Of a stretch of DNA of 64,000 nucleotides, positions 11,405 through 59,564 are shown piece after piece (the first letter of the stretch is position 1; every line of letters begins with the position of its first letter). The DNA is from Gammaproteobacteria bacterium. Lineage in GTDB: Bacteria; Pseudomonadota; Gammaproteobacteria; Ga0077536. The stretch is taken from NCBI GenBank assembly GCA_965216305.1, contig OZ244144.1, positions 2,036,248-2,100,247 of the forward strand, given 5' to 3'. The notes under the pieces were generated by a model. The model did no database searches, was not told where the DNA came from, and saw nothing but the letters and a program-made list of their open reading frames with translations. A program made the translations under genes and the position numbers.

Positions 11405-11409
11405 CGGGA

Positions 11410-42298: not shown

Positions 42299-42826
42299 AT
42301 GCGTAAATTGATATTTAGAGCTCGGCGCTTGTGGAAGATTCGCAATAACAGCTACCCGTCGTACGTACCAGCAACATCGTTTGTGCAAACGTCGTCATCG
42401 TTTGTCGAACCGGCAAAACTGTCCTTAGGCGAGCACGTTTACATTGGCGCCGAATGTTTTATTAATTGCAAAGGTGGCGTCGCAATTGGTGACGGTTGCA
42501 TGGTATCGGCGTACGTCGTGATCCTTTCTGAGGATCATGATTTTCGTGAGGTGGTCCGCATGCCCTTCAACCGCGGTATGCGGTTTGATCCTGTAACGAT
42601 CGAAGCTGGTGTCTGGCTTGGGATTCGATCGATGATTCTGCCTGGAACTATTATCGGGCAAGGTGCAATCGTCGCCGCAGGTTCGGTGGTAACAAAGAAC
42701 GTAGAGCAGGGCACCATCGTTGCAGGAAATCCCGCGAGGGTCGTAGGCAAGCGGATCGATGGCTGGCGTTCAGTCCTCGATGCCAAACAGTACTACCTCG
42801 CCGGGCATGCGTTAATTGGCGGATAG
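42299..42826 (+). CDS. Hexapeptide-repeat (left-handed beta-helix) acyl/acetyltransferase, probable polysaccharide O-acetyltransferase.
   Basis: LbH repeats (IGAECFINCKGGVAIGDGCMVSAYVVI...VWLGIRSMILPGTIIGQGAIVAAGSVV). Trimmed to ATG 42299. Similar to the WcaF/maltose-O-acetyltransferase type. Confidence 0.8.
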   Translation: MRKLIFRARRLWKIRNNSYPSYVPATSFVQTSSSFVEPAKLSLGEHVYIGAECFINCKGGVAIGDGCMVSAYVVILSEDHDFREVVRMPFNRGMRFDPVTIEAGVWLGIRSMILPGTIIGQGAIVAAGSVVTKNVEQGTIVAGNPARVVGKRIDGWRSVLDAKQYYLAGHALIGG

Positions 42827-42862
42827 CCGTATAGCCCGCAGATAGACCGGATGAATTGAGAA

Positions 42863-43825
42863 GTGGAGAAAGGACCGATATTTGTCGTTGGGCCGCCTCG
42901 TAGCGGCACGCACCTGATGCGTTATTGCTTGAGTCAGCATCCAAATGTCTATATTGGCCCAGAGTCTAACTTTTTCCAGGCGATCTATGGCAGCCGCACC
43001 GTCGTCCCAGATTCTCTAATTAAATCAAACAGCGGATTGATTCTGGAGATGCTGTTCGCCAGCGGCGACCCAAGCATGTCTGAATTTGAACCGAACAAAG
43101 ATGCGATCGAGAAATCGATCAAGATGCAGGCCAATAATTATCGAGAACTCTCCCGGATAATTTTTAGTAGTTTCGCAATTTACAAGCAGAAGCCACGATG
43201 GGGCGAGAAAACGCCGCTGCATCTATATTATCTGGATAAGCTGTTCGATTACTTCCCGAACGCAAGAGTCATTTGTATGCGGCGTGATCCGAAAAACATA
43301 ATCGCGTCCTACATAAAAAGTAGTCACATGCCTAATAGATTGTCATTCGCTATGGCTGAAGTCAGGCATTGCTGGAAAATTATGCAGCGTATTACTGACA
43401 AAAGATTACAAATCGTCGAGTACGAAGATCTGCTGGCAAACCCGTCCGCTACATTGCGAATGGTTTGTGATTTTTTGGATGAGGAATTTAAGGAGGCCAT
43501 GCTCAACCCAAAAATGCGGGATTCTTCATACAGTGGCGGGATCATGGAGTTCGACGAATCGATAAAAATCGAACAGGAACCCGGTGCAAACGAGAAATGG
43601 AAACGCGTATTGAGCGAAGAAGAGGCTCGCAGCGTCATGACATGGGTGAACGTGGGCGCGATATCGCTGTTTTCTCCCGAAGTTAGTTGGCTGCTAATTG
43701 GGCGCGCGATTATTGCGTCGTGGGTCTATCGTATGCGATTAATGAAGTCAAGAATGGGGCTTTTCCACTGGAAGCGCGTCGTGCAAGTAAGTCGGCGGCG
43801 CGCCGACTATCCGCAAGCGGATTAG
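42863..43825 (+). CDS. Sulfotransferase family protein (PAPS-dependent).
   Basis: 5'-PSB loop VVGPPRSGTHLM and 3'-PB motif RDPKNIIASY. About 320 aa, typical of the Sulfotransfer_3-like family. Hydrophobic C-terminal tail. Confidence 0.75.
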   Translation: MEKGPIFVVGPPRSGTHLMRYCLSQHPNVYIGPESNFFQAIYGSRTVVPDSLIKSNSGLILEMLFASGDPSMSEFEPNKDAIEKSIKMQANNYRELSRIIFSSFAIYKQKPRWGEKTPLHLYYLDKLFDYFPNARVICMRRDPKNIIASYIKSSHMPNRLSFAMAEVRHCWKIMQRITDKRLQIVEYEDLLANPSATLRMVCDFLDEEFKEAMLNPKMRDSSYSGGIMEFDESIKIEQEPGANEKWKRVLSEEEARSVMTWVNVGAISLFSPEVSWLLIGRAIIASWVYRMRLMKSRMGLFHWKRVVQVSRRRADYPQAD

Positions 43826-43858
43826 CAACCCCAGCACGATGAGGTGTAATTAACACAA

Positions 43859-45106
43859 GTGAATATCTTATTCGTTGTGAACGAGGTGCCCTATCCGCCG
43901 GATAACGGTGTAAAGATCGTCTCCTATAACGCCATGCGAATGATGAGCGAAGCTGGGCACAACGTTAGTATTTGTGTTCTGTGCGAAAAGAGCCCTTCAT
44001 CGATTTCGGATTACGAATCGCTGTGTTCGGAGTTTGGAATCGAAAACAGGTGTATCGAATTCACCGACGAAAGTAAGAAACTGAGAAATATCGTGCGTAC
44101 CGCGTTATGCGGCAAGCTATATTTCATTGAGCGGTTCCGATCACTGTCGTTTCGGGTTGCGCTGGAGGTCTTGGTTGCGAAGTTTGAACCCGATGTTATT
44201 CATTTTGATCTGATCACCTTGTGTCAATACTATGATGTAGCCCCGCTCGGCATCGGAACTGTTGCGTCAATAAACGATTGCTATTCGCTCAAACTTGAGA
44301 ACTCGCTGGCTGCCGGGAATTACTCCGGAGTTGAAGTGCCGTATCGAGTTTGGCAACTTCGGCGGTCCAGAAAGTACGAATCGCAGATGTATCCAAATTT
44401 CGACTTCGTTCATGTGATGAGCGAAGTCGACAGCGGGTACCTCGAAAAGCTAAACCCGAAGATCGAAACGAGAGTTATTCCGAATGGTGTCAGTGCCGAG
44501 TTGTTCAATTTGCCACAGGTGAATAGCGCAAATGTCACAGTACTATTCATTGCTCATCTGGCTGGTGATAATTTGGTGTACTTGGCGAACCTTCTAGACA
44601 AATGTTGGCCGGTTGTCGCTCGTGAATTTCCCCAAAGCGTGTTGCGAATCGTAGGCAAGATTCCAGAGTCTTCACGTCCGCTACAAACGAAATACGAAAA
44701 CGTTGAGGGTGTGCGATTCGCTGGCTACGCCGAGAATCTTGTGGACGCCTACGAAGGATGTGATATCGCAGTTGTTCCCATTAATAAGAGCGGCGGCATT
44801 CTGAATAAGGCTATTGAGGCCATGGCGGCAGGCCTTGCGGTCGTTGGCTTCGACAAATCCTTCGCCGGAATCGCCGGTGCGCGTAGTGGACAACATTACC
44901 TAACCGCTAAAGATTATGAGGGAATAGGAGAGGTCTTGATTGCACTGATTCGAGACCAGAATCGTCGGGACGAGATACGAGCGCAGGCGCGTAAATTTGC
45001 TCGCGATAATTTTTCCTGGAACCAGCGTGTTGAGGCTTACGAGTCGATGTATTGGCAAGCTGCACGACTGTCGATCGAGAAGCGCAGCGGACATGGATCA
45101 ACGTAG
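43859..45106 (+). CDS. Glycosyltransferase family 4 (GT-B, Glycos_transf_1).
   Basis: C-terminal GT4 signature (…EGCDIAVVPINKSGGILNKAIEAMAAGLAVVG…). GTG start. Confidence 0.8.
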   Translation: MNILFVVNEVPYPPDNGVKIVSYNAMRMMSEAGHNVSICVLCEKSPSSISDYESLCSEFGIENRCIEFTDESKKLRNIVRTALCGKLYFIERFRSLSFRVALEVLVAKFEPDVIHFDLITLCQYYDVAPLGIGTVASINDCYSLKLENSLAAGNYSGVEVPYRVWQLRRSRKYESQMYPNFDFVHVMSEVDSGYLEKLNPKIETRVIPNGVSAELFNLPQVNSANVTVLFIAHLAGDNLVYLANLLDKCWPVVAREFPQSVLRIVGKIPESSRPLQTKYENVEGVRFAGYAENLVDAYEGCDIAVVPINKSGGILNKAIEAMAAGLAVVGFDKSFAGIAGARSGQHYLTAKDYEGIGEVLIALIRDQNRRDEIRAQARKFARDNFSWNQRVEAYESMYWQAARLSIEKRSGHGST

Positions 45107-45896
45107 TCAATTTCGAATTCACCTTGAAGCCGCTAAGCGGTTATTCATGGTCAATGCCCTTTCTGGTGTACTACCGCTTTACATCGTTACGGAATATCCG
45201 AAATCTGGCGGAACCTGGATATCTCAGGTTCTTTCGGAATGTTTGGGTATCCCCTTTCCTCGAAACAGGCCACCAAAACTTGAATCCTGCCTAATGCACG
45301 GCCACATGACTTTTTCGCCACTTATGAAAAACGTTGTCGTTGTACAACGCGACGGCAGAGACGTGATGATATCGTGGTATTACCATATGTTGTTTCAGCA
45401 TGATCGAAATACGCAACATCTCGTAGAAAAGACGAGGCAACGCCTAGCATTCCCTGATTTTGAGGATATTGAGGAGAACTTACCGAAGTTTATTGAGTAT
45501 GTTTTCGAGTCGGAGCAGCGATCTCGAAGTCCATTTCATTTCACGTGGAGCCAGTTCGTTGACAGCTGGCACGACAAAGATGTCCCGAAAGTAAGTTATG
45601 AGGAAATGATTGAGGGGCCTGTCCGTGCTGTACAGAACGTGATAGGGCGACTGGGGGTAGATGAAGTTGACGCCGAAACCGTAGCGACGATAGTTGATAA
45701 GTATAGCTTTCAGGCGCAATCACAGCGTGCGCCAGGTCAGGAGGATAAATCTAGTTTTCTCCGGCGTGGAAAGCCCGGTGATTGGAAGAACAAGTTTAAC
45801 CGACGTGCGGCAGAAGTTTTCGATCAACTGGCAGGAACTCAATTGGTCCAACTTGGGTACGAGCCAGATACAAGTTGGGTTAGGAAGCTCCTGTGA
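45093..45896 (+). CDS. Sulfotransferase (Sulfotransfer_1-like, PAPS-dependent).
   Basis: Trimmed to ATG 45093, which overlaps the GT4 end by 14 nt. 5'-PSB motif EYPKSGGTWISQVL. C-terminal RRGKPGDWKNKF matches the canonical RKGxxGDWKNxF sulfotransferase motif. Confidence 0.8.
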   Translation: MDQRSQFRIHLEAAKRLFMVNALSGVLPLYIVTEYPKSGGTWISQVLSECLGIPFPRNRPPKLESCLMHGHMTFSPLMKNVVVVQRDGRDVMISWYYHMLFQHDRNTQHLVEKTRQRLAFPDFEDIEENLPKFIEYVFESEQRSRSPFHFTWSQFVDSWHDKDVPKVSYEEMIEGPVRAVQNVIGRLGVDEVDAETVATIVDKYSFQAQSQRAPGQEDKSSFLRRGKPGDWKNKFNRRAAEVFDQLAGTQLVQLGYEPDTSWVRKLL

Positions 45897-47059
45897 CGTC
45901 TGACGCGAACGGGTACGATTTCTTGCTTAATGGCGCGTCGATAGTCGTCGGTGGCGGCATTCAATCGTGCTCTGCATTCGTTAGATATTTGATCGCCCGC
46001 GGGATTAGTGAACGCTGCTTCTTCGTCGTTTCGGATGAAATACATCAGGAACTATTGAAGTTTGGTGTGGATATTGCCTCGATGGGCGGGGTAGTTACGA
46101 TTGATGCGCCCTCGAAGCATCTCGCGACGAGACGTTTGCTCGCGGACGTAGAGCGAAAGTGTAAACCTGCGGTGGTGTTCACGTTCTTCGGTCCGTCTTA
46201 TGTCAAGTTTCGAGCTAAGCATATATGCGGTGTGGCTGACGGGTGGGTGACGCACTCCACTCCTTTGGCGTTTAAAACACTCCGAGGTTGGTCAGCGAAA
46301 TTGCGTATGCTTGCCGCGCTAATCTACAAAGCATTCCATTTTCGAAGAGCGGACTACTGGATAGTAGAGCACGACTGTGCGAAGCAAGGCCTTATCCGTC
46401 GGCTGAGGCTGGCGCCTGGTAAAATATCGGTCGTGCCAAATAATTGTGCACCCCATTACGTCGCCTCGACTGAACGGACTGTGCTCTTGGAGGAAACAGC
46501 CAAGTGCCGAATTCTGGTATTCGGGGCTTACTATCCGAATAAGCGGTTAGAAATCATTCCCCTGGTTGCAAAGGCCTTAAGATCGCTCGATCAAGAATTC
46601 TCGTTTGAATTCATCATCACTGTTAAACCTGGTCTGCCTATTTGCGATGAACTTGCTACGAGCTTGAAAAGGATCGGACTGAATCACAGCTTCAAAAATA
46701 TCGGACCGATTCCATTACGAGACGGGCCGGCGCTATACAGGTCGTGCGACGTCGTGTTTCACCCTTCGGTATTGGAAACGTTTTCGGCGGTATACCCGGA
46801 AGCAATGGCGATGGCTGTACCGATCGTTACCAGTGATCTAGATTTCGCTCGATCGATTTGCGGAGAAGGGGCACTTTATTTCAATCCAAACGATCCTGGC
46901 GATGCGGCAAAGAAGATTCACGAAGTTCACACAAATGTGAATGCTCGAAAGCGACTAATCGAGCGAGCGAGAAAGCGCCAATCTGATATGCCTACCATTG
47001 ATCAGAACCACAAGTCACTCGTAGACATCATTAGCGGTATCGTGGACCGTCACTCCTAA
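45893..47059 (+). CDS. Glycosyltransferase family 4.
   Basis: 388 aa. GT4 E-x7-E region (ETFSAVYPEAMAMAVPIVTSD). Overlaps neighbours by 4 and 1 nt, suggesting translational coupling. Confidence 0.75.
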   Translation: MTSDANGYDFLLNGASIVVGGGIQSCSAFVRYLIARGISERCFFVVSDEIHQELLKFGVDIASMGGVVTIDAPSKHLATRRLLADVERKCKPAVVFTFFGPSYVKFRAKHICGVADGWVTHSTPLAFKTLRGWSAKLRMLAALIYKAFHFRRADYWIVEHDCAKQGLIRRLRLAPGKISVVPNNCAPHYVASTERTVLLEETAKCRILVFGAYYPNKRLEIIPLVAKALRSLDQEFSFEFIITVKPGLPICDELATSLKRIGLNHSFKNIGPIPLRDGPALYRSCDVVFHPSVLETFSAVYPEAMAMAVPIVTSDLDFARSICGEGALYFNPNDPGDAAKKIHEVHTNVNARKRLIERARKRQSDMPTIDQNHKSLVDIISGIVDRHS

Positions 47060-48621
47060 TGAATACGCAAGATCTGCCAAACGTTCCCTTACCGGGCATT
47101 GATTATTACCGTGGCCAAGGTGATTTACGGATTAAGGTTGCCGTTTTTCTCAATGTATCGCGAATTGAAGGTCTATATTTCGAACGCGAGAAAAGTCTTA
47201 GGCTACTCTGGAACTATTGGCGCGAAATTGGCTTTAAGGCAGTTCTGACGAAGATCCGTTCGAGACACGCGGAGCGAGCGCGGAATGTCAAGTTTCTTTC
47301 GGTGGGAGTCGGCTACGTCGAGGAAGCGGATAGTGGCAGTCAGTTCGCGCGTGAACTGGTGATGTTCGTAGCACCTCAGCACCCGCGGTTATTGGATTCG
47401 ATTGTATTGTGCGAGGCGTTGGTGCATCGCATTACAAACGATCACGATCTCCCAGAAAAAGCCGGTGTGCTGATTCACGACGAGATTGATTCGAGTGTGT
47501 CGTCTGCGCTGGAACCTTTGTGTGGTTGGGACAAAATTTCCCAAACGCCGATTCCAGCCATCGATTGGTCGTTGATTTCGCGAATGTTACATGACCACAA
47601 TTATTCGGCCGCAAAAAGATATCGGAATAACGCTCGGGATTACCACGATATCTTACCCGCCAGCTTCCAACGGAAGACTTCGGGGAATGTAAAATACGCG
47701 ACTCTGTTCGGGTACGGAAATTACGCGAAGTCCGTTATTCTCGCAAACCTGCCTGACAGCTTAGTAGTGACACGCATACACGAACTGGATCCGATTCAGA
47801 TACCTCACCGGGAACGGCATGTAACATGGGATACGAGTCCAGGCCCGCGCACTAATGACGCTAATCGCGTATTTTTTACTGCCGGTTACCATCACACGCA
47901 CACGGATCAGGCGGTTATCTGCTTACGCTCGGGAGGCGACGCAGTAATCGAGAAACCGCTTGTGGTCAATGAACAGCAACTCTCCGACCTACTAGATGGC
48001 TTGCAGGCGTCCCGGGGACGCGCATTTGCGTGCTTCCAAAAGCGTTACAGTATATTTAACCAGCACGCGCGAGAGGATTTGGAGGTAGCCGAGGGCGAGC
48101 CGGTTTCGTACCACTGTATTGTTTACGAAGTTCCATTGCCGCCGTTGCACTGGTATCGGTGGCCCTCTTCGAGATCCAGACTCATATCCAATGGCTGCCA
48201 TTGGATTGATCACGCGCTGTATCTAAATGGATTCCCCGCGTTCGAAACCATTAGTGTTTTTCAGAGTTCTTCCTCAGAGATAAATGTGTCTGTTGAGTTT
48301 TCTAATGGAGCGTTCTTTACGATGATTCTTACAGACAAAGGGAGTTCGCGGATTGGTATGCAGGACTATGTTGAATTAAGGGCGAACGGAAAGACAGTCA
48401 AAATTGCGAATAGCACTAGCTATCAGAGCGAAAGCTCTGATCGAATTATCAGGAAATGTCGTGCTAATAAAATGAAAAGTTACGCAAATATGTATCGAAC
48501 GATTGGCCAAAGAATTTTAGGCGATGGCCCAGGAGACTCGCTTGAATCCGTCGTTAGTAGTTGCAAACTGACCGTTGAGTTGGATAAAAAAGCCGGCGGG
48601 ACTCAAGGGGTGCCCTCGTGA
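47059..48621 (+). CDS. Two-domain protein: uncharacterized N-terminal domain (~200 aa) fused to a Gfo/Idh/MocA-family NAD(P)-dependent oxidoreductase.
   Basis: C-terminal half has Rossmann GxGxxA (LFGYGNYAKS), the EKP motif (AVIEKPL) and a GCHWIDHALYL-type C-terminal-domain motif of the Gfo/Idh/MocA family. N-terminal 200 aa has no motif I recognise. Confidence 0.65.
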   Translation: MNTQDLPNVPLPGIDYYRGQGDLRIKVAVFLNVSRIEGLYFEREKSLRLLWNYWREIGFKAVLTKIRSRHAERARNVKFLSVGVGYVEEADSGSQFARELVMFVAPQHPRLLDSIVLCEALVHRITNDHDLPEKAGVLIHDEIDSSVSSALEPLCGWDKISQTPIPAIDWSLISRMLHDHNYSAAKRYRNNARDYHDILPASFQRKTSGNVKYATLFGYGNYAKSVILANLPDSLVVTRIHELDPIQIPHRERHVTWDTSPGPRTNDANRVFFTAGYHHTHTDQAVICLRSGGDAVIEKPLVVNEQQLSDLLDGLQASRGRAFACFQKRYSIFNQHAREDLEVAEGEPVSYHCIVYEVPLPPLHWYRWPSSRSRLISNGCHWIDHALYLNGFPAFETISVFQSSSSEINVSVEFSNGAFFTMILTDKGSSRIGMQDYVELRANGKTVKIANSTSYQSESSDRIIRKCRANKMKSYANMYRTIGQRILGDGPGDSLESVVSSCKLTVELDKKAGGTQGVPS

Positions 48622-48624
48622 AAA

Positions 48625-48866
48625 AACTCTTAACGGTCTACGCACTGGGACCACGATCGTTGAGTATTTACCGCCGCTAATGCCGTTGCTCGGGCAATTA
48701 TAAAGTCGCATGAGCGTTACGGTTATCTCTGCGGGGTCGAAGCGAATGTTAATGGGTTTTGGGAAAGGCAACCGTATCGCAAAAGCACGGCAACAACCCG
48801 ACAAGGGGAGGCAGGTGATAACAAAGCTGCGCACCGACGGTATTGTTCCCGCGGTCGATCTGGTTC
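48625..48866 (+). pseudogene. Decayed duplicate of the first ~80 codons of the downstream bi-domain oxidoreductase gene (gene remnant / recombination scar).
   Basis: Translating 48625-48866 gives K T L N G L R T G T T I V E Y L P P L M P L L G Q L * S R M S V T V I S A G S K R M L M G F G K G N R I A K A R Q Q P D K G R Q V I T K L R T D G I V P A V D L V R F G *. This aligns colinearly with MKQVLQDLSSGQTIVEDVPEPMPAPGALLIRTSRTLISAGTEKMLIDFGKGNLISKAMQQPDKVKQVLDKVRTDGLGPTLQTVRSKLG of the gene starting at 48959. The remnant has internal stop codons. Confidence 0.75.
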
Positions 48867-48958
48867 GGTTCGGCTAAGGTGCCCTTGCACGTAAACCGAT
48901 TGCTCGGACTGGCGGGTCCGATTTTCGCTATTCTAATTGAACCGTAAGATTTTCATAA

Positions 48959-51100
48959 ATGAAACAAGTACTTCAGGATTTGTCGTCAGGACAAACTATC
49001 GTTGAGGACGTCCCGGAACCAATGCCCGCGCCGGGCGCGTTACTGATCAGAACTTCCAGGACCTTAATTTCCGCGGGGACCGAGAAGATGCTTATAGATT
49101 TCGGGAAAGGGAACCTGATTTCGAAGGCGATGCAGCAACCCGATAAAGTGAAACAGGTTCTGGATAAGGTTAGAACGGATGGGCTCGGGCCCACGCTCCA
49201 AACCGTGCGTAGCAAGCTTGGTCAGCCGTTACCAACTGGCTACTGCAATGTCGGAGTTGCCGAATCCATTGGTGCTGGCGTGGCGGGTTTCGATGTAGGC
49301 GACCGAATTGCTTCAAATGGAAAGCACGCCGGTGTGGTCTCGGTTCCCCAAAACCTGTGCGCCAGGATCCCCGATTCAGTTCCCGATGACGAAGCGGCAT
49401 TTACAGTGGTGGGAGCCATAAGTCTCCAGGGCGTCCGCCTCGTTGCGCCTGCTTTAGGCGAATGTGTCGTCGTGATTGGCCTGGGGTTGATAGGTCTCAT
49501 CACCGTCCAACTCCTGCGGGCACATGGATGTCGGGTTCTCGGCATCGACTACGATTCGCGGAAGGTCGACATGGCCAAGGAGTTCGGTGCAACGGCAATC
49601 AATCTCGCGAGCGGTGATGACCCCATTGCTGCCGCAATGACCTTCTCGCGAAAGCGGGGTGTTGACGCAGTAATTATTACCGCTTCAACAAAGAGTAACG
49701 AACCGGTGCATCAGGCCGCGACGATGTGCCGGAAAAGGGGACGCATCGTTCTCGTCGGTGTGGTTGGTCTCGAACTATCGCGCGCCGACTTTTTCGAGAA
49801 GGAACTCACGTTCCAGGTCTCCTGCTCGTATGGCCCGGGTCGGTACGATCCGCGCTATGAGGAGGGCGGGCAGGATTACCCGGTGGGCTATGTCCGGTGG
49901 ACGGAACAGCGAAATTTCGAAGCGTTTCTGGACATGATTGCGGAGCGTCGTTTGGACATGCGGCCGCTAATTTCCCATCATTTCGATATTGAACGCGCAA
50001 CTGAAGCATACGACCTAATCAGCGGCGATTCGCCGTCGCTCGGCGTGCTCCTCCGCTATCCGAAGTCGGACGAAAACCCGCGACACGCAAATACAGTTGA
50101 ACTCGCAACCCGAGATCCGAAAGAACGGCCGGGCAATGCTACAGTTGGGTTCATCGGTGCAGGAAACTACGCGTCGCAAGTTCTGATTCCCGCGTTCGCG
50201 AAAACCGAGGCGCAGCTGCGTGCGGTTGTATCTGCGTCCGGAGTGAGCGCGGTACACATAGGCAAAACTTTCGCTATCTCACAAGCCTCGACCGACACGG
50301 ACGGGGTAATAAGCGACGAAGAGACGAACACCGTCGTAATAACAACACGGCATGATTCGCATGCGCGGCTGGTCTGCGCAGCATTGTCTGCAGCTAAAAG
50401 CGTGTTCGTCGAGAAACCGCTCGCTCTGAATAATGCGCAATTGGATCAGATCGCAGAGGCCTACGAGAGCGTCTCCGCTGACAAGGGCGTAAGACCGAAT
50501 TTGATGGTTGGGTTCAATCGACGTTTCTCCCCGCAAATTGTTGAGCTAAAACGTCTGCTGGATTCCACGAGCCAACCAAAGAGTTTTATTGTTACGGTAA
50601 ATGCTGGTGAAATTCCTCCTGAACATTGGACTCAGGACAAACACATCGGCGGCGGTAGAATTATCGGCGAGGCATGCCACTTCATTGACTTACTTCGTCA
50701 CCTCGCGGGCGTGCCGATTGCCGAGGTTCAGGCAGTCCGCATGGGTTCGAAACCCGGCGTGTCTACCCCGGATGACAAAGCAACGTTCACCCTGGCATTC
50801 GAAGACGGATCTTTTGGAACCGTGCATTATTTTGCTAACGGCAGCAAATCGTTTCCGAAAGAACGCATCGAGGTGTTCTCTGGTGGCGGTATTATCCAAC
50901 TCGACAATTTCCGCAAGATGAAAGGCTATGGCTGGCCTGGTTTCAAATCGATGAACCTCAGGCGTCAGGACAAGGGCAACGGTGCGTGCGTACAGGCGTT
51001 TGTGGACAGTGTCACCACCGGCGCCGAGTCTCCGATCCCATATAACGAATTAATGGAAGTCCATCGACGCACATTCCAAATCGCAGATCTGCTCGGCTGA
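48959..51100 (+). CDS. Bi-domain oxidoreductase: N-terminal Zn-dependent alcohol dehydrogenase (MDR) domain fused to a C-terminal Gfo/Idh/MocA oxidoreductase domain.
   Basis: 713 aa. Residues ~1-340 have MDR features (GroES-like fold, Rossmann VVIGLGLIGL). Residues ~380-713 have Gfo/Idh/MocA motifs (VGFIGAGNYAS, VFVEKPLA, GGRIIGEACHFIDLLRHL). Confidence 0.8.
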   Translation: MKQVLQDLSSGQTIVEDVPEPMPAPGALLIRTSRTLISAGTEKMLIDFGKGNLISKAMQQPDKVKQVLDKVRTDGLGPTLQTVRSKLGQPLPTGYCNVGVAESIGAGVAGFDVGDRIASNGKHAGVVSVPQNLCARIPDSVPDDEAAFTVVGAISLQGVRLVAPALGECVVVIGLGLIGLITVQLLRAHGCRVLGIDYDSRKVDMAKEFGATAINLASGDDPIAAAMTFSRKRGVDAVIITASTKSNEPVHQAATMCRKRGRIVLVGVVGLELSRADFFEKELTFQVSCSYGPGRYDPRYEEGGQDYPVGYVRWTEQRNFEAFLDMIAERRLDMRPLISHHFDIERATEAYDLISGDSPSLGVLLRYPKSDENPRHANTVELATRDPKERPGNATVGFIGAGNYASQVLIPAFAKTEAQLRAVVSASGVSAVHIGKTFAISQASTDTDGVISDEETNTVVITTRHDSHARLVCAALSAAKSVFVEKPLALNNAQLDQIAEAYESVSADKGVRPNLMVGFNRRFSPQIVELKRLLDSTSQPKSFIVTVNAGEIPPEHWTQDKHIGGGRIIGEACHFIDLLRHLAGVPIAEVQAVRMGSKPGVSTPDDKATFTLAFEDGSFGTVHYFANGSKSFPKERIEVFSGGGIIQLDNFRKMKGYGWPGFKSMNLRRQDKGNGACVQAFVDSVTTGAESPIPYNELMEVHRRTFQIADLLG

Positions 51101-52904: not shown

Positions 52905-54161
52905 ATGCGGATCCTGTTTCTCTCCCACTATTTTCCTCCGGAAGTTAACGCCCCGGCATCGCGGACGTTTGAGCACTGCCGCGAATGGGTTCGCCTCGGC
53001 CATGAGGTTACCGTCGTAACTTGCGCGCCGAATCATCCGCGAGGCCAGGTCTACGACGGCTACCGTAATCGCTTGTTTCAACGTGAAGAAATCGAAGGCA
53101 TAAACGTAATCAGGGTTTGGACCTATCTTTCCGCGAACGAGGGTTTTATCAAGCGCACCATGAATTACGTCTCGTTCATGCTGGCCTGCATTTTCACGGT
53201 GCCGGGCATGCCGAAGTGCGATATCGTGATCTCGACGTCTCCGCAGTTCTTTAATGGATTAGCCGGTTTTTTCGTCAGTCGTCTGAAATCGGCGCCCTGG
53301 CTACTCGAAATCAGAGACCTTTGGCCGGAGTCCATTCTGGCAGTAGGCGCCATAACAAATACCACCTTGATTCGCAGCCTGCGCTGGCTCGAATCGTTCG
53401 CTTACCGAAAGTGCAACCACATAGTGCCGGTAACGGATGCTTTCAGGCGACATATGCTCGACATGGGAATTGCCGCGGACAAGATTACAGTAATCAAGAA
53501 TGGCGCTTCCCTGGATTTCTACGACGACACTAACTCGGACGGTGGTTTGCGAACTCAGTTGGGGTTACAGGACAAGTTCATTGCGGCGTATTTTGGTACC
53601 CACGGAATGGCGCACCATCTCGAAACAGTCCTGGAAGCTGCAGCAGAACTCCAAGACAATGAACACGTCGTATTCTTGCTCGTTGGTGATGGTGCGGAAC
53701 GAGTCAGGCTCGAACAGCAACTGGCATCCATGAAGCTAGATAACGTAATGATGCTTGGTCAACAGCCGAAAGAAAAAATGCCAGCATTGTGGGCGATGAG
53801 CGACGCAAGTTTAGTGCTGCTGCGACGGACCGACCTGTTCAAAACGGTCATTCCATCGAAAATATTCGAAGCGATGGCGATGGCAAAGCCGATTATCCTT
53901 GGTGTCGAAGGTGAGTCGAAAGAAATCGTTGAAACTGCCGGAGCAGGGATTGCGATACCCCCCGAAGACGCCAAGGCGCTTGCGTCGGCTGTCTCGACAC
54001 TCGCCGAAGACGCCGGCGCCTGTGAGTCTTATGGCCGCAATGGCAAGTCCTATGTGCACGAATATTTTGACCGTAAGGTGCTTGCGAAACGATACGAGGG
54101 CTTACTTGCGGAAGTGGCGAAATCGCGTAACGCACAAGGAATGAAGAGGAAAGCAAATTGA
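52905..54161 (+). CDS. Glycosyltransferase family 4 (WbuB/WcaI-like).
   Basis: 418 aa. N-terminal MRILFLSHYFPPEVNAPASR is typical of WbuB-like GT4. C-terminal E-x7-E (EAMAMAKPIILGVEGESKE). Confidence 0.85.
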   Translation: MRILFLSHYFPPEVNAPASRTFEHCREWVRLGHEVTVVTCAPNHPRGQVYDGYRNRLFQREEIEGINVIRVWTYLSANEGFIKRTMNYVSFMLACIFTVPGMPKCDIVISTSPQFFNGLAGFFVSRLKSAPWLLEIRDLWPESILAVGAITNTTLIRSLRWLESFAYRKCNHIVPVTDAFRRHMLDMGIAADKITVIKNGASLDFYDDTNSDGGLRTQLGLQDKFIAAYFGTHGMAHHLETVLEAAAELQDNEHVVFLLVGDGAERVRLEQQLASMKLDNVMMLGQQPKEKMPALWAMSDASLVLLRRTDLFKTVIPSKIFEAMAMAKPIILGVEGESKEIVETAGAGIAIPPEDAKALASAVSTLAEDAGACESYGRNGKSYVHEYFDRKVLAKRYEGLLAEVAKSRNAQGMKRKAN

Positions 54162-55732
54162 ACACAGCCGCCACGCAGTATTGGAAGAATTCGACGCTCG
54201 GCTGGCTTTTAGTCATTGTCGCTGCGTCGGCCGGTGCGTATATCTTCTACGAAAGCGTCGAATTAATGGTGAGTTGGTGGTCGAATCGCGAAGAATACAG
54301 CCACGGTTTCCTTATTCCGCTGATCACCGTCTACCTTATTTGGCAGCGCAGCGACCAATTGCGCAAGATTGAGTTCTCGGGGTCGTGGCTCGGTGTTCTG
54401 GTCGTCTTATTTGGCCTGTTTCTGTATTTTCTGGGTGAACTCAGCACAATCTACACGGTTGTGCAGTACGGTTTTGTGCTGGTGATTTACGGTGTTGTCT
54501 GGGCATACATCGGCACGAAGGCTTTCAAGGTAGTAGCCATCCCCCTGCTGCTGCTCTTCTTCATGATCCCGTTCCCCAACTTCATCTACAACAACCTCTC
54601 CTCCCAGCTCCAACTGCTTTCTTCCGAAATCGGCGTTGCCGTAATCCGCCTGTTCGGCATCAGCGTATTCCTCGAAGGCAATGTCATCGATCTCGGAACG
54701 TACAAGCTCCAGGTCGTCGAAGCGTGCAACGGCTTGCGCTATCTGTTTCCGCTGATGACGCTTGGCCTGATCGTGGCCTATCTCTATCACGCAGCGTTAT
54801 GGAAGCGCGCGATTATTTTCTTCTCGACAATTCCTATCACGATCCTGATGAACAGTTTCCGGATCGGCGTGATCGGTGTGATGGTGGAGTACTGGGGGCA
54901 GTCGATGGCGGAGGGGTTCCTCCACGACTTCGAGGGCTGGGTAATCTTTATGGCGTGTTTCGGGATCTTGTTCCTGGAAATGTGGCTATTGATGCGCATT
55001 ACGAAGGATAAACGGCCGCTCAACGAGGTGTTCGGTATCGATCCGCCCGAGCCTGTTGATGAGAACGCCCAATGGCGTACCCGCCCGTTGCCGGTGACGA
55101 TGATAGTAGCCACCGTGCTGATCGTGGGCGCCCTGGTGCCGGCTACGGCGATTCCTAACCGGGTTGAATCCGTTCCCGAGCGCGAATCATTCGCGACGTT
55201 CCCGTTGTCGTTCGATGGTTGGACGGGACGGTCGGAAACGCTGGAACAAATCTACCTCGACGCGCTCAAGCTCACGGACTACGCGCTCATTAACTATACG
55301 AACGACACGGACAACGTCGTGAATTTCTATGCAGCGTACTACGCGTCGCAGCGTAAGGGTCAGTCCGCTCATTCGCCGCGCTCGTGCATACCGGGTGGCG
55401 GCTGGCGCATCGAGTCGCTCACACAGGTTTCGGTGCCGGAAGGCGCACCGGGGGGCGGGGATTTGCCGGTGAACCGGGTACTGATTACGAACGGCAATCA
55501 CAAACAACTCGTCTACTACTGGTTTCAGCAGCGGGGTCGGATCATCACGAATGAATACCTCGTGAAGTGGTTCGTGTTCTGGGATGCGATGACGAAGAAC
55601 CGCACGGATGGATCCTTGATCCGGTTGACGATACCGATTGCTCCGGGCAAGGACGTCGATGAACTTGAGAAGTTGTTGCGCAAGTTCGCCCGCGATGCCC
55701 GCGACATCCTGCCGGCCTACGTGCCTGGGTAG
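54158..55732 (+). CDS. xrtA: Exosortase A (XrtA) fused to a C-terminal EpsI-family domain.
   Basis: N-terminal ~300 aa with 8 TM helices and exosortase active-site Cys motif (VVEACNGLRYLFP) plus conserved Arg/Asn positions. C-terminal ~200 aa periplasmic domain resembling EpsI. TTG start with AAGAGGAAAG RBS, overlapping the upstream stop. Confidence 0.8.
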   Translation: MNTAATQYWKNSTLGWLLVIVAASAGAYIFYESVELMVSWWSNREEYSHGFLIPLITVYLIWQRSDQLRKIEFSGSWLGVLVVLFGLFLYFLGELSTIYTVVQYGFVLVIYGVVWAYIGTKAFKVVAIPLLLLFFMIPFPNFIYNNLSSQLQLLSSEIGVAVIRLFGISVFLEGNVIDLGTYKLQVVEACNGLRYLFPLMTLGLIVAYLYHAALWKRAIIFFSTIPITILMNSFRIGVIGVMVEYWGQSMAEGFLHDFEGWVIFMACFGILFLEMWLLMRITKDKRPLNEVFGIDPPEPVDENAQWRTRPLPVTMIVATVLIVGALVPATAIPNRVESVPERESFATFPLSFDGWTGRSETLEQIYLDALKLTDYALINYTNDTDNVVNFYAAYYASQRKGQSAHSPRSCIPGGGWRIESLTQVSVPEGAPGGGDLPVNRVLITNGNHKQLVYYWFQQRGRIITNEYLVKWFVFWDAMTKNRTDGSLIRLTIPIAPGKDVDELEKLLRKFARDARDILPAYVPG

Positions 55733-55738
55733 ACATCC

Positions 55739-57391
55739 ATGCTGTCGTTCTTCACCTTCATCATCGCGATGTTCATTACGATGGTGTTGATTCCGCCGTT
55801 GATGCGCTCGGCCGAAAAATTATCGTTCATCGATGCGCCCGGCGAGCGCAAGGTTCACGAAATCCCGATCCCGCGCATTGGCGGCGTCGCGATGGTGGCC
55901 GGTGCGGTAACGCCGATACTCATGTGGGTAGAGCGTCCGCCGCTTGTGCTCGCGTTTCTCGTGGGGATTGGGATTATTCTGGTTTTCGGCGTTTGGGACG
56001 ATCGCAAGGCGCTCGATTTCAGGTTGAAATTCCTCGGGCAATTTCTCGCGATCAGCGTGGTCGTGATTTATGGCGGTGTCGAGATCCGCTATTTGCCATT
56101 TCACAGTATCGATCCCGTGCCGGCCTACGTGTCGATCCCGTTTACGTATTTTGCCTTGCTCGGGGTGACGAATGCGATCAATCTCGCGGACGGCCTCGAC
56201 GGCCTGGCGGGCGGTACGATGCTCCTCAGCATTGCGGCCATCGGACTGCTCGCGTTCCTGGCCGGTGACGATCTGCTCGTGATCTTTTGCCTCGCCGTGA
56301 TGGGCAGCATCATCGGCTTTCTGCGCTACAACACGTATCCCGCGCAGGTTTTCATGGGCGACTGCGGCAGCCAGTTTCTTGGTTTTTCGGTGGGTGTGCT
56401 TGTGATCATTCTCACCCAAACCAGCAATCCGGCGCTGAGCCCGTCCATGACGTTACTAATACTCGGGCTACCGATCGTCGACACCTTCATCGTGATGGGG
56501 CAGCGAGTATACGAGGGACGCTCGCCGTTCAAGCCCGATCGCAATCACGTGCATCATCGTCTGCTCGAATTCGGCTTCGATCACTATGAAGCCGTGCTTA
56601 TCATTTATATCGCGCAGGCCGCGCTAGTAACCAGCGCATTCGTCTTCCGCTTCGAAACGGATCTGTTCAATTTGCTTGTGTTTGCCGCGGCGATGGTTGG
56701 CATTCTTTTCGCGTTCAACACCGCGGAAAGACTTGGCTGGTCGGCACATGGCAGCCTTGGCGCGGGGTCGCGCACGCAGTTGGGTACGTTCGTGCGCAGG
56801 CTGCGGGCGAGCGGCGTGTTGTCAGACTACCCGGTGGTATTCGTCGCGGTAGCCGTGCCGTGCTATCTGCTGTACGCAATTATGCATTCAGGTCAGATCC
56901 CGCTGGATGGCACCGTCTCATCGCTCGTGCTGTTCATCATTGCCGCGGCAGCGCTGGCGTTGTTTCGGCAATCCGAGGGGATTCATCTGATCGAGCGCGT
57001 GGTGGTTTACGTCGCGGCAACGATGGCCGTGTATTACTGGCATACCACCACCATGCGCTACCAGGGTCCGTACAGCTTCGAAAACGTGTTCTTCCTGCTG
57101 CTCACAACCGCGATTGTCGTGAGCTATCGCTTTGCTCAACCGCGCAAGTTCACCGTCACCCCAACGGATTTTCTCGTGATCTTCCTCGCCGTTGTCGCGC
57201 CGGGGCTGCTCGGATCGCTGGTGACACAAAGCAATATCATGGCGATCGGCGCGAAAACCGTCATTTTGTTCTATGCGATCGAAATGCTCATCGCCCGCTC
57301 GCTCGGGCGCGAACTCGTGTATCGCAGTGCCGTTGCCGGGATTCTTGCGCTGATGACGCTGAAGTGTGGAATCAATCCCGCGTTGTTCTGA
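55739..57391 (+). CDS. Polyprenyl-phosphate N-acetylhexosamine-1-phosphate transferase (WecA/WbpL/MraY-family initiating enzyme) with extended C-terminal membrane domain.
   Basis: PNPT signature motifs (GVWDD, NAINLADGLDGLAGG, VFMGDCGSQFLGF, DRNHVHHRLL). 550 aa versus about 350 aa for canonical WecA; the extra ~200 aa form additional TM helices. Confidence 0.8.
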   Translation: MLSFFTFIIAMFITMVLIPPLMRSAEKLSFIDAPGERKVHEIPIPRIGGVAMVAGAVTPILMWVERPPLVLAFLVGIGIILVFGVWDDRKALDFRLKFLGQFLAISVVVIYGGVEIRYLPFHSIDPVPAYVSIPFTYFALLGVTNAINLADGLDGLAGGTMLLSIAAIGLLAFLAGDDLLVIFCLAVMGSIIGFLRYNTYPAQVFMGDCGSQFLGFSVGVLVIILTQTSNPALSPSMTLLILGLPIVDTFIVMGQRVYEGRSPFKPDRNHVHHRLLEFGFDHYEAVLIIYIAQAALVTSAFVFRFETDLFNLLVFAAAMVGILFAFNTAERLGWSAHGSLGAGSRTQLGTFVRRLRASGVLSDYPVVFVAVAVPCYLLYAIMHSGQIPLDGTVSSLVLFIIAAAALALFRQSEGIHLIERVVVYVAATMAVYYWHTTTMRYQGPYSFENVFFLLLTTAIVVSYRFAQPRKFTVTPTDFLVIFLAVVAPGLLGSLVTQSNIMAIGAKTVILFYAIEMLIARSLGRELVYRSAVAGILALMTLKCGINPALF

Positions 57392-57517
57392 TCGTTCGCC
57401 ACGGCGCAGGCCCATATTAGAACGCTCGTTCGACAGCGAAACCCCGGTGTTTTTTTAGCAGCCACGCATCGCATCGAGTAGAATCCGCGCGTCCACATTC
57501 CAATCGGCAACAGGTTC

Positions 57518-58609
57518 ATGACGAAGAAAATCGCACTCATCACCGGAGTCACCGGCCAGGACGGCGCCTACCTGTCGGAGTTTCTGATCAAAAAAGGTTA
57601 CGAGGTGCACGGTATCAAGCGCCGCTCATCAAGCTTTAATACAAATCGAATCGACCATCTCTACCAGGATCCGCACACCGCGAATGCGAATTTCGTGCTC
57701 CATTACGGTGATCTCACCGACGCGACGAATCTGATCCGGATTGTGCAGGAAGTGCAACCGGACGAAATTTACAACCTCGCGGCCCAGAGTCACGTGGCGG
57801 TCTCGTTCGAAACACCGGAATACACCGCGAACGCCGATGCGCTCGGCACGCTGCGATTGCTCGAGGCGATCCGGATCCTCGGGCGCGAAGAACAAACCCG
57901 TTTTTACCAGGCGTCCACGAGCGAAATGTACGGTGCCGTACGCGAAGTGCCGCAAACGGAATCCACGCCGTTCTATCCGCGCAGCCCGTATGGCGCAGCG
58001 AAGGTTTATGCCTACTGGATTTGCGTGAACTACCGCGAGGCCTACAACATGTTTTGCTGTAACGGGATCCTGTTCAATCATGAATCCCCGATCCGGGGTG
58101 AGACGTTCGTTACCCGTAAAATCACGCGGGCCGCGGCGCGGATCAGCCTTGGACTGCAGGACATTCTGTATCTCGGCAACATGGATTCGCTGCGCGACTG
58201 GGGCCATGCCCGCGATTACGTCGAAGCGATGTGGCTGATGCTGCAACAGGACGAGCCGGACGACTACGTCGTGGCCACCGGCAAACAGGTTTCCGTGCGC
58301 GATTTTGCGGAAATGGCGTTTGCGGAAGTGGGGATCCGGATCGAATGGCGCGGCGAAGGGGTGAAAGAAGAGGGCGTTGATGCCAAGACCGGGATCGTCC
58401 GGATAGCGGTCGACCCGCGCTATTTTCGCCCGACGGAAGTTGAAACGCTGCTGGGGGATCCGAGTAAGGCGCAGGAAAAACTCGGCTGGCGCGCGCGGAC
58501 GTCGCTGTCGGTGATGGTGAAGGAAATGATGGCCGACGACGTGAATGGCGCGGAGAAAGACGAGATGCTCCGCCGTGAAGGCTTCCAGACGTTCGACTAT
58601 TTCGAGTAA
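57518..58609 (+). CDS. gmd: GDP-mannose 4,6-dehydratase.
   Basis: N-terminal [28 protein letters not shown] and active-site STSEMYG plus Yxxx K region. 363 aa. Confidence 0.95.
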
Positions 58610-58616
58610 GCATACG

Positions 58617-59564
58617 ATGAAAAAATCGGATCCCGTTCTTATCGCCGGCGCCGGCGGCATGGTGGGTGCGGCAATTAAGCGCAAACTCGAAGCCGACGGG
58701 TTCACGAACCTGCTCACGCCGCGTCACGCCGAGCTCGACCTCTGCGACACGCGCGCGGTTGATGCCTACCTGCGCGAACACCGTCCGCGCGGAGTCTATG
58801 TGGCCGCGGCGAAAGTCGGCGGCATCCACGCCAATAACACGTACGCGGCAGACTTCATCTACGACAACCTGATGATTGAAGCGAACCTGATCAAGGGCGC
58901 GCATGATGTTGGCGTGGAGAAACTGCTGTTCCTCGGCAGCACTTGTATCTATCCGAAAATGAGCTCGCAGCCGATCAGGGAAGACTATTTGCTCACCGGC
59001 CCGCTCGAACCCACGAACGAGTGGTATGCCGTGGCGAAGATCGCCGGCATCAAATTGTGCCAGGCATTCCGGCGGCAGCACGGCGACCGGTTTATTTGCG
59101 CCATGCCCACGAATCTTTACGGACAAAACGACAGCTTCGATCTCGAGAACTCGCACGTACTGCCGGCGCTGATGCGGAAATTCCACGAAGCGAGGGAAGC
59201 GGGCGCGCCATCGGTCACGGTGTGGGGCAGTGGCGCGCCGCTGCGCGAATTCCTGCACGTCGACGACTGCGCCGCCGCGTGCACGTTTTTGATGCAAAAC
59301 TACGATGAACCTGAAATCGTGAACATCGGGGTGGGCCACGACATTTCCATTCTCGACCTCGCCCACCTCATCCGCGAGATCGTCGGTTTTGAAGGGGAAT
59401 TGCATTTCGATGCTTCAAAGCCCGACGGTACCCCGCGCAAGCTCGTCGATGTTACGAAAATCACGGAACTTGGCTGGCGCGCGAACATCGAACTTCGCGA
59501 CGGCATAGCGGCAACGTATGCCTGGTACCGCGAGGCCCTGCGCGACGGCAGCGTGCGGCAGTAG
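58617..59564 (+). CDS. fcl: GDP-L-fucose synthase (GDP-4-keto-6-deoxymannose 3,5-epimerase/4-reductase).
   Basis: Trimmed to ATG 58617 (MKKSDPVLIAGAGGMVGAAI). SDR-extended fold with STCIYP and YAVAK motifs. Directly follows gmd. Confidence 0.92.
   Translation: MKKSDPVLIAGAGGMVGAAIKRKLEADGFTNLLTPRHAELDLCDTRAVDAYLREHRPRGVYVAAAKVGGIHANNTYAADFIYDNLMIEANLIKGAHDVGVEKLLFLGSTCIYPKMSSQPIREDYLLTGPLEPTNEWYAVAKIAGIKLCQAFRRQHGDRFICAMPTNLYGQNDSFDLENSHVLPALMRKFHEAREAGAPSVTVWGSGAPLREFLHVDDCAAACTFLMQNYDEPEIVNIGVGHDISILDLAHLIREIVGFEGELHFDASKPDGTPRKLVDVTKITELGWRANIELRDGIAATYAWYREALRDGSVRQ

Follow-up and report, generated by a model that had tools for sequence, protein, structure and literature searches.

A probable exosortase-type Wzx/Wzy exopolysaccharide locus with two predicted PAPS-dependent sulfotransferases in a gammaproteobacterium

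In Synechocystis sp. PCC 6803, the Wzx/Wzy-type xss cluster with two sulfotransferases of distinct subfamilies is responsible for the exopolysaccharide (EPS) synechan, which carries two sulfates per eight sugars (PMC8205485), and in Actinoplanes missouriensis the Wzx/Wzy/Wzz cluster wps-1 contains "two sulfotransferases in different families" (WpsB and WpsH), each being required for the phenotype (PMC13390465). Sulfated capsules were proven by nuclear magnetic resonance in Vibrio sp. KMM 8419 (PMC11641403) and in Cobetia marina KMM 1449 (PMC11766843), with 2-sulfated rhamnose (Rha2S) in Cobetia, and a review lists six bacterial genera with sulfated polysaccharides as well as a fucosyl-sulfating KpsS in Mesorhizobium (PMC11625862). 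A putative sulfated glycosaminoglycan cluster has also been noted in Pontiella. Here, a 64-kb stretch of gammaproteobacterial DNA (contig OZ244144.1 of assembly GCA_965216305.1, hereafter the window) was analysed, in which two genes for sulfotransferases of the 3'-phosphoadenosine 5'-phosphosulfate (PAPS) type, ST1 (42863-43825) and ST2 (45093-45896), lie within an EPS locus on the + strand. Judging from its gene content, the product of this locus is probably a sulfated, acetylated EPS; sulfation of the polymer was taken as the best reading because two real PAPS sulfotransferases sit in the glycosyltransferase (GT) block of an EPS locus with an XrtD-type exosortase, next to a hexapeptide acetyltransferase (AcT).

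The locus resembles xss in having a flippase, a putative polymerase, a co-polymerase, several GTs and two sulfotransferases; synechan has about two sulfates per repeat (PMC8205485). It has four sugar transferases as against the eight GTs of xss, and WecA priming, XrtD/EpsI, PrsT, the acetyltransferase, WecB, gmd-fcl and an oxidoreductase/heparinase-like cassette are present on the window side only; regulators of the XssQ/R/S type were not seen in the window locus, and the sugars of synechan are rhamnose, mannose, galactose and glucose, not fucose. ST1 was recognised as a remote homologue of XssE by hhalign (99.8% probability, E 1e-29) and by tblastn (23% identity over 93% of the query). ST2 was also considered as an XssA homologue and rejected, since the hhalign probability was 18% with nothing past the shared fold. 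In the xss region of Synechocystis plasmid pSYSM (positions 5284-5724 of comparison locus L083; L numbers denote such loci throughout), one gene is annotated as "cyanoexosortase A system-associated protein".

As with wps-1, the sulfated nature of the EPS was deduced from genes (PMC13390465). The wps-1 cluster is set apart, by its description, by an actinomycete host, by the lack of an exosortase system and by other sulfotransferase families, with InterPro domains of the Gal/GlcNAc/GalNAc type and the heparan-sulfate type. The Vibrio and Cobetia strains are marine gammaproteobacteria with sulfotransferase genes in their polysaccharide clusters, and the Vibrio cluster also has an acyltransferase; unlike the window locus, however, they make capsules by ABC-transporter (Kps) systems, carry cysDN/cysC/cysQ in the cluster and use rhamnose, glucose and mannose (PMC11641403, PMC11766843). 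A further likeness was found to XrtA/PEP-CTERM loci (TIGR03007, TIGR03015, TIGR03018, TIGR03027 and TIGR02917), with which the window shares the ATPase, the outer-membrane polysaccharide export protein (OPX), the co-polymerase, the tyrosine kinase, an exosortase with EpsI, PrsT and a stp-type family 4 GT (GT4). The co-polymerase, kinase, OPX, ATPase and PrsT all resemble XrtA-system families, but the exosortase of the window is XrtD, of the VPLPA-CTERM type, and every accessory protein scores below the XrtA-system cut-off, so that the scaffold fits a sister system of XrtA. No paper on XrtD was found in the literature search.

The rhizobial enzymes NodH, NoeE, LpsS and KpsS are bacterial, PAPS-dependent and of the Sulfotransfer_3 type, with the RxG(T/S) 5'-phosphosulfate-binding (5'-PSB) loop that is also seen in ST1. 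Rhizobial glycan sulfotransferases act on GlcNAc, fucose or polysaccharide. A sulfotransferase encoded on a Sinorhizobium plasmid matches ST1 at E 3e-7. In contrast to ST1 and ST2, the rhizobial enzymes serve Nod factors, lipopolysaccharide and K polysaccharide in symbionts, outside a Wzx/Wzy operon of this kind, and the similarity of NoeE to ST1 is very low. A sulfated-EPS cluster is thus not new in kind, and no new principle is offered, because comparable two-sulfotransferase clusters and structurally proven sulfated capsules have been published (PMC8205485, PMC13390465, PMC11641403, PMC11766843); the link between such a cluster and an exosortase may also not be unique to the window. What is particular to the window locus is the XrtD scaffold, the SULT-like clade of ST2 and the combination with an AcT-ST1 module.

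ST1 matched Pfam Sulfotransfer_3 (PF13469) with 115.3 bits (E 6e-33, cut-off 27) over profile positions 1-215 of 216, and Sulfotransfer_1 with 44 bits. The motif PRSGTH was located at residues 12-17 (PPRSGTH at 11-17) and RDPKN at residues 141-145, where R141 and S149 within RRDPKNIIAS form the R...S motif of 3'-phosphate binding (3'-PB). In an alignment of 30 homologues, R13, G15 and T16 of the 5'-PSB loop, E34, K116-T117-P118, R141 and S149 were invariant. By phmmer, ST1 aligned to the sulfotransferase domains of CurM and of the olefin synthase (OLS) and to TPST1/2, and E34 lined up with the PPEL-motif Glu that the CurM and OLS domains have (4GOX, 4GBM), which agrees with the position, about 21 residues past the PSB arginine, where we presume the catalytic Glu of this type to lie (E99 in TPST2, E60 in the CurM sulfotransferase). 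The AlphaFold model of ST1 (pLDDT 92.2, pTM 0.91) was searched against the PDB with Foldseek, and all 50 of the 50 listed matches had the PAPS/PAP-binding sulfotransferase fold (best E 2e-10), with TPST1/2, the CurM and OLS sulfotransferase domains and Stf9 at the top. By family and by predicted fold, ST1 is therefore a genuine PAPS-type sulfotransferase. No signal or transmembrane segment was detected in ST1 by hydropathy scan; the C-terminal helices were considered as a membrane anchor, and this was dropped as their hydropathy and hydrophobic moment were unremarkable.

In the public annotation, ST1 has 302 aa and begins at Met19, by which the PAPS-binding PRSGTH loop (window 42863-42917) is lost. 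This start was rejected because it deletes a conserved PAPS loop, and the GTG at 42863 was preferred; it is the first start after the in-frame stop and is backed by the homologues and by an independent Logan gene call of 320 aa.

ST2 matched Pfam Sulfotransfer_1 (PF00685) with 73 bits (E 3e-20, cut-off 22), the best stretch covering profile positions 92-251 of 255, and its N-terminal PSB segment was matched separately to SULT1A1. The motifs YPKSGGTW (residues 35-42), RDGRDVMIS (86-94) and FLRRGKPGDW (222-231) are the counterparts of the SULT PKSGTTW 5'-PSB loop, the R...S 3'-PB motif and the C-terminal RKGxxGDW, and in an alignment of 34 homologues they were invariant or at least 90% conserved: S38-G39-G40, W42, H71, R86-D87-G88-R89-D90, S94, R224, G226, D230 and W231 were invariant, and K37 and H69 were conserved in at least 90%. 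By hhalign, K37 corresponded to K48 of SULT1A1, H71 to His108, R86 to R130, S94 to S138 and R224-G226 to R257-G259; the SULT1A1 query agrees with the separately aligned stretches, outside which the His108 segment lies. The structural model of ST2 (pLDDT 90.5) had SULT1E1, SULT1A1 and SULT2B1 as top Foldseek matches, with TM-scores of 0.55-0.61 and E values down to 4e-9. ST2 is thus, on profile and model, a genuine PAPS-type sulfotransferase similar to cytosolic SULTs. It has no signal or transmembrane segment by hydropathy scan. A longer reading of ST2 from the TTG at 44997 was rejected, as the homologues begin at the Met at 45093.

An earlier note on this DNA had proposed PAPS-type sulfotransferases at both positions, and this was borne out, far beyond chance, by the HMM searches, the motifs, the catalytic residues and structural matches to sulfotransferases only. 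The motifs it quoted (PRSGTH and RDPKN for ST1, PKSGGTW and RRGKPGDWKNKF for ST2) are all present, and of the checks it suggested, the profile-HMM search placed both proteins above the Pfam sulfotransferase cut-offs and structure prediction gave the sulfotransferase fold for both. Its description of the two as unrelated holds in that they belong to different Pfam families and that BLASTP of ST1 against ST2 aligned no homologous regions, but it is overstated, because they have one common fold and the same PAPS-binding motifs. Two distinct sulfation positions, as it had predicted, are plausible.

Both genes belong to one tight operon with AcT, three GT4 genes, Wzx, a Wzy-like protein and the XrtD exosortase. 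AcT (42299-42826) is a hexapeptide-repeat protein (Hexapep 54 bits, cut-off 27) and probably an O-acetyltransferase; its best NCBIfam matches, all below cut-off, were the WcaF family, WbbJ and maltose O-acetyltransferase, and it is paired with ST1 homologues also in L081, L084 and L085. AcT is separated by 36 nt from ST1, which in turn lies 33 nt upstream of GT4a (43859-45106), a stp1-like GT4 with Pfam Glyco_trans_1_4, Glycos_transf_1 and Glyco_transf_4 matches and a sub-cut-off score of 113 bits against TIGR03087. The stop of GT4a reaches 14 nt into the start of ST2, and the translationally coupled GT4b (45893-47059; Pfam Glycos_transf_1 and Glyco_trans_1_4) overlaps the end of ST2 by 4 nt. 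The enzyme family, the fold, the motifs, this operon packing and the conserved synteny described below are established.

For the comparison of neighbourhoods, 185,579 species genomes were scanned for relatives of ST2, which gave 415 loci in at least about ten phyla, and the neighbourhoods were taken from the best 80 of these 415 loci. The host groups comprised Gammaproteobacteria, Planctomycetota, Bacteroidota, Actinomycetota (Rubrobacter), Cyanobacteria, Desulfobacterota, Chloroflexota, Gemmatimonadota, Acidobacteriota and others, and at this frequency it was fair of the earlier note to call sulfation of bacterial polysaccharides uncommon. Most of the 80 loci have polysaccharide-synthesis genes (WcaI-like GT4 at 37, WecB at 29, oxidoreductase at 11 and tyrosine kinase at 10), a GT4 lies directly downstream of ST2 in 28 of 73, and the ST2-GT4b pair is kept in L001, L003, L004, L005 and L006. 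In L004, from a gammaproteobacterial metagenome-assembled genome (MAG), the genes for the beta-helix protein, Wzx, Wzy, GT4a, ST2, GT4b, the oxidoreductase, the heparinase III-like protein (HepIII) and the WcaI-like GT follow each other in window order without AcT and ST1, and L081, a metagenome contig, has Wzx, Wzy, AcT, ST1 and GT4a without ST2; the window thus joins two modules that exist apart. The gene orders show that the modules Wzx-Wzy-AcT-ST1-GT4 and GT4-ST2-GT4 recur separately and recombine between loci.

The close subfamily of ST1 is rare (25 representative clusters at E <= 1e-30 among 1.84 billion), and every one of its recovered contexts was a Wzx-type polysaccharide locus, in which a hexapeptide transferase, a GT4 and additional sulfotransferases were often present. 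A metagenome scan with the ST1 alignment, whose listed matches were distant Sulfotransfer_3 proteins of at most 33% identity, was left aside. The ST1 relatives of Roseovarius indicus and of metagenome contigs come after Wzx, with hexapeptide, GT4 and other sulfotransferase genes as their neighbours. Since L084 (Roseovarius indicus) and L085 hold three sulfotransferase genes each, together with hexapeptide or MBOAT acyltransferases, loci with several sulfotransferases are a recurring design in environmental bacteria. The Gemmatimonadota MAG loci L044 and L071 combine ST2 with a relative of ST1 (43% and 37% identity, respectively). This comparative evidence is the strongest argument that ST1 and ST2 act on polysaccharide.

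From the gene content and the known topology of the Wzx/Wzy pathway, a mechanism was derived that we regard as fairly probable, namely an XrtD-type Wzx/Wzy locus in which the lipid-linked repeat is sulfated by ST1 and ST2 and acetylated before flipping. Briefly, the WecA-like enzyme would prime undecaprenyl phosphate with N-acetylhexosamine (HexNAc)-1-phosphate, and the cytoplasmic GT4a, GT4b and WcaI-like GT would build this up to a repeat of about four sugars. As precursors, the locus would use UDP-GlcNAc, a sugar derived from UDP-ManNAc (WecB with the oxidoreductase/heparinase-like cassette) and GDP-L-fucose (ManC, Gmd and Fcl), and UDP-ManNAc may be altered further by two oxidoreductase-type proteins and the cytoplasmic heparinase-like protein. 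At the cytoplasmic face, the hexapeptide acetyltransferase would add one or more O-acetyl groups per lipid-linked repeat, and soluble ST1 and ST2 would add up to two sulfate esters, ST1 with a Glu base of the TPST/CurM type and ST2 with a His base of the SULT type. Because PAPS and acetyl-CoA are cytoplasmic, both modifications are placed on the undecaprenyl-diphosphate-linked repeat before the Wzx flip. The decorated unit would then be flipped by Wzx, polymerised by the Wzy-like protein and exported by the co-polymerase, tyrosine kinase and OPX, while XrtD would process VPLPA-CTERM proteins encoded elsewhere. The acceptor sugars, the sulfation positions, the timing and the actual addition of sulfate are what we infer here from the genes.

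Several findings weigh against sulfation of the polymer by this route. The structures nearest to ST1 belong to enzymes for peptides or polyketide intermediates and those nearest to ST2 to enzymes for small phenols and steroids, not for glycans, and the literature searched gave no characterised protein from either the ST2 clade or the close ST1 clade. In Synechocystis, EPS accumulation and bloom formation were little affected when the ST1-like enzyme XssE was deleted (PMC8205485). The Wzy candidate had no HMM match in the Pfam and NCBIfam searches. A six-frame motif scan of the window gave no credible C-terminal VPLPA-CTERM sorting signal; substrates of XrtD may be encoded elsewhere in the genome. 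None of cysD, cysN, cysC and cysQ was found in the window. For one group, the presence of PAPS genes within the cluster is a hallmark of sulfated-polysaccharide loci, and sulfotransferases are looked for together with cysDN/cysC; of these, the window has the sulfotransferases alone (PMC11641403).

The structural matches, tyrosylprotein and polyketide-pathway sulfotransferases for ST1 and small-molecule SULTs for ST2, are what would be expected if one or both enzymes had a substrate other than polysaccharide, such as tyrosines of secreted or VPLPA-CTERM proteins (as for TPST or RaxST), a lipid or a small metabolite, with their position in the locus being incidental, and the tie of the locus to the protein-sorting enzyme XrtD points the same way. 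We consider this improbable, as ST1 and ST2 are translationally packed between GT genes, both families recur beside Wzx, GT4 and acetyltransferase genes in unrelated phyla, and the window has no candidate peptide substrate or VPLPA-CTERM gene. Polysaccharide is therefore kept as the preferred substrate. A further explanation, that the enzymes are present and the polymer is unsulfated in vivo, through a lack of PAPS, silent or decaying genes or a recent island unintegrated with the metabolism of the host, would be in line with the missing PAPS genes, with the low GC content of the island (about 49% against 60-65% in the flanks) and with the public ST1 call that lacks the PAPS loop. For sulfate assimilation, however, many gammaproteobacteria have cysDN and cysC, every catalytic and PAPS-binding residue of ST1 and ST2 is intact, the reading frames are of full length and match their homologues end to end, and the GTG start restores the ST1 loop in agreement with the independent 320-aa call, so that this explanation is very unlikely, even more so than a non-polysaccharide substrate.

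The sugar composition was deduced from the transferases and precursor genes. The locus has four transferases in all, the WecA-like enzyme and three GT4 proteins (GT4a, GT4b and the WcaI-like GT). The WecA/MraY-family protein (55739-57391) is a predicted priming HexNAc-1-phosphate transferase with many transmembrane segments (TIGR02380 167 bits, E 5.6e-49, below the cut-off of 326), and wecB (37114-38244) encodes a non-hydrolysing UDP-GlcNAc 2-epimerase that would supply UDP-ManNAc (TIGR00236 313.5 bits, cut-off 210; Pfam Epimerase_2 E 6e-106). Downstream of GT4b, a cassette of a bi-domain oxidoreductase (48959-51100; Pfam ADH_zinc_N and Gfo/Idh/MocA), a heparinase II/III-like protein (51100-52770; Hepar_II_III_C 165.5 bits, Hepar_II_III_N 46.7 bits, PDB heparinase III E 1e-9) and the WcaI-like GT4 (52905-54161; NF007640 205.8 bits, below the cut-off of 276) was found, which recurs in L004, L012, L033, L034, L036 and L053; its hosts are Gammaproteobacteria, Saprospiraceae and delta/epsilon MAGs, and it often adjoins WecB. 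The counterparts of the oxidoreductase in L004, L007, L012 and L081 are 63-64% identical, and the heparinase-like protein has no signal or transmembrane segment and is listed as cytoplasmic. No paper on a cassette of this composition was found in the literature searched. The preceding gene (47059-48621) encodes a 520-aa protein with no Pfam or NCBIfam match at threshold; its residues 216-451 aligned to the Gfo domain of the oxidoreductase (BLASTP E 5e-12), by which its C-terminal half is read as a diverged paralogous copy of the Gfo/Idh/MocA domain that the following gene encodes. From WecA with three GT4 proteins, WecB and the cassette, a mixed amino-sugar repeat was derived, and the gene content suggests an amino-sugar-containing heteropolysaccharide with at most about one fucose per repeat.

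The earlier note had instead predicted a complete GDP-fucose pathway and a fucose-rich, fucoidan-like polymer. The genes it named as flanking the locus are in place: manC/manA (29837-31294), a bifunctional mannose-1-phosphate guanylyltransferase and mannose-6-phosphate isomerase (TIGR01479 653.8 bits, cut-off 373; Pfam NTP_transferase and MannoseP_isomer), gmd (57518-58609; TIGR01472 605.4 bits, cut-off 415) and an fcl gene for a GDP-L-fucose synthase-like protein, of which the ORF opens at 58545 and the likely start is at 58617 (58617-59564; NF047922 484.3 bits, just below the cut-off of 500, with the match from residue 6). The word complete goes too far, as no phosphomannomutase gene (manB) was found among the scanned ORFs of the window and fcl is slightly under its cut-off; manB may be encoded elsewhere in the genome. 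WecA adjoins PrsT directly in L013 and L016 and is followed by PrsT also in L001, whereas in the window gmd-fcl stands between them and therefore resembles locus-specific cargo. Of the 5 evaluable loci with a relative of the WcaI-like GT at 40% identity or more, 4 have a true gmd no farther off than about 2.5 kb, as against 2 of 72 others (Fisher p = 5e-5; two of the four are closely related and not independent), which is suggestive of this GT as the best fucosyltransferase candidate.

These observations would also suit a polymer rich in fucose, similar to fucoidan, in which both enzymes sulfate fucose at two positions. A gmd lies about 6 kb from the Roseovarius ST1 relative. In NCBIfam, ST1 matched NoeE alone, a Nod-factor sulfotransferase specific for fucose, and this match is weak (31 bits where the cut-off is 500) and covers the PAPS-binding half only. 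Fucosyl sulfotransferase activity is also reported for KpsS, which acts on polysaccharide in rhizobia (PMC11625862). Such a polymer is nevertheless unlikely, if less so than a non-polysaccharide substrate, and the gene content argues against a backbone dominated by fucose: at most one of the four transferases is a plausible fucosyltransferase, while WecA, WecB and the cassette imply amino sugars and probably oxidised sugars. A true gmd is near only 6 of the 80 ST2 loci, and L001, L006, L013 and L016 retain ST2 without a functional gmd-fcl, neither gmd nor fcl being present in the locus in L006, L013 and L016. In L001, the closest XrtD locus (XrtD 70% identical), fcl is cut to a fragment of residues 206-308 (L001 19064-19372) between WecA and PrsT, and it seems that the gmd-fcl pair has decayed there while ST2-GT4b was kept. 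The mixed, amino-sugar-containing repeat with little fucose was thus retained.

More tentatively, and with odds clearly short of even, the ST2 clade, which usually lies next to GT4 genes, may represent a large family of repeat-unit sulfotransferases with a SULT-like Lys/His mechanism; by joining ST2 to the rare ST1-AcT module and to the cytoplasmic heparinase-like/oxidoreductase cassette, the window locus would make a heteropolymer that resembles glycosaminoglycans, is O-acetylated and doubly sulfated and is tied to XrtD sorting. If this reading of the clade is true, sulfated extracellular polysaccharides would be far commoner in bacteria than the small number of examples with structural or genetic proof suggests. 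Cultured carriers of the ST2 family, in which the prediction is open to direct test, are Rubrobacter marinus SCSIO 52915, Desulfonema magnum 4be13, Rivularia sp. UHCC 0363 and Calothrix sp. CCY 0018, and a relative of ST1 is present in Roseovarius indicus. Few bacterial polysaccharide sulfotransferases have been characterised, and such enzymes are sought so that sulfated glycans can be produced with no need of animals or algae; the locus offers two candidates with intact active sites and a compact, transplantable Wzx/Wzy operon. Of most value among the by-products of the analysis are the ST2 family, which spans phyla, and the cassette in which an oxidoreductase, a heparinase-like protein and a WcaI-like GT are conserved together.

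According to the ORF map of the window, the region from 29.8 to 62.1 kb is an unbroken run of co-oriented genes on the + strand, in which all genes named in the earlier note were located where it had placed them. The part from 31.5 to 62 kb is best explained as a Wzx/Wzy-dependent EPS locus of the exosortase XrtD type in a low-GC island. The GC content is about 0.49 at 32-48 kb as against 0.60-0.65 in the flanks, with a gradual climb to 0.59 by gmd-fcl. A drop of this kind is usual for a variable polysaccharide island, and because of it the variable part of the locus seems horizontally acquired.

The export scaffold begins with an AAA ATPase of the exosortase system, similar to pepcterm_ATPase (31492-32385; TIGR03015 288.9 bits, below the cut-off of 324.5; Pfam AAA_22), which is followed by the Wza-like OPX (32382-32948; Pfam Poly_export and SLBB; TIGR03027 143.7 bits, below the cut-off of 180) and by a putative outer-membrane beta-barrel protein (32984-34201), assigned from weak porin/beta-barrel Pfam matches, all sub-cut-off, and partly from its position in the locus. 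The co-polymerase or chain-length determinant (34198-35988; TIGR03007 232.9 bits, below the cut-off of 278.9; weak Wzz Pfam match) is followed by its presumed partner, a tyrosine autokinase (36005-36826; TIGR03018 169 bits, cut-off 230.65, and TIGR01007 98 bits, cut-off 108, both below). The co-polymerase, kinase, OPX and WecA-like proteins were thus recognised below the equivalog cut-offs, and the Wzx-type flippase (39569-40816), which has many transmembrane-like segments, above the Pfam cut-off (Polysacc_synt 32.6 bits, cut-off 28.2). The Wzy-type polymerase (40862-42244) is a putative assignment from 10 partly overlapping transmembrane-like segments in the hydropathy profile and from its position after Wzx; it is about 40% identical to its counterparts in L004 and L081.

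The exosortase placement in the earlier note was confirmed by the XrtD protein (54158-55732), which matched TIGR04152 with 599 bits (cut-off 400) and Pfam Exosortase_EpsH and DUF3485, and is fused to an EpsI domain (144.5 bits, cut-off 42.8); the two sulfotransferase genes and AcT stand in the same locus, as that note had also said. At the end of the run lies the PrsT-like TPR lipoprotein of the exosortase system (59757-62147; TIGR02917 310.4 bits, just below the cut-off of 312.2). Between wecB and Wzx, an ORF that opens at 38150 has its likely start at Met34 (38249), directly past the wecB stop and ahead of a hydrophobic signal-like segment. It encodes a right-handed beta-helix protein (38249-39544; Pfam Beta_helix and Pect-lyase_RHGA_epim), possibly a glycanase, lyase or epimerase, which is about 51% identical to its counterparts in L004 and L081 and is a probable periplasmic or secreted EPS-modifying enzyme.

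The remaining genes of the window encode S-adenosylhomocysteine hydrolase, cysteinyl- and isoleucyl-tRNA synthetases, MlaC paralogues, an ABC ATPase, DUF1631, XdhC, a GGDEF-EAL regulator, a BatD/VWA operon, ApbE and a major facilitator superfamily transporter. Upstream of the EPS locus, on the - strand, are a response-regulator/PAS/GGDEF/EAL protein (19175-21340) and the BatD/VWA/TPR operon (21488-26162). The former, a cyclic di-GMP protein, could act as a regulator of EPS production. Two convergent MlaC-family paralogues adjoin each other at 9982-10623 (+) and 10766-11413 (-).

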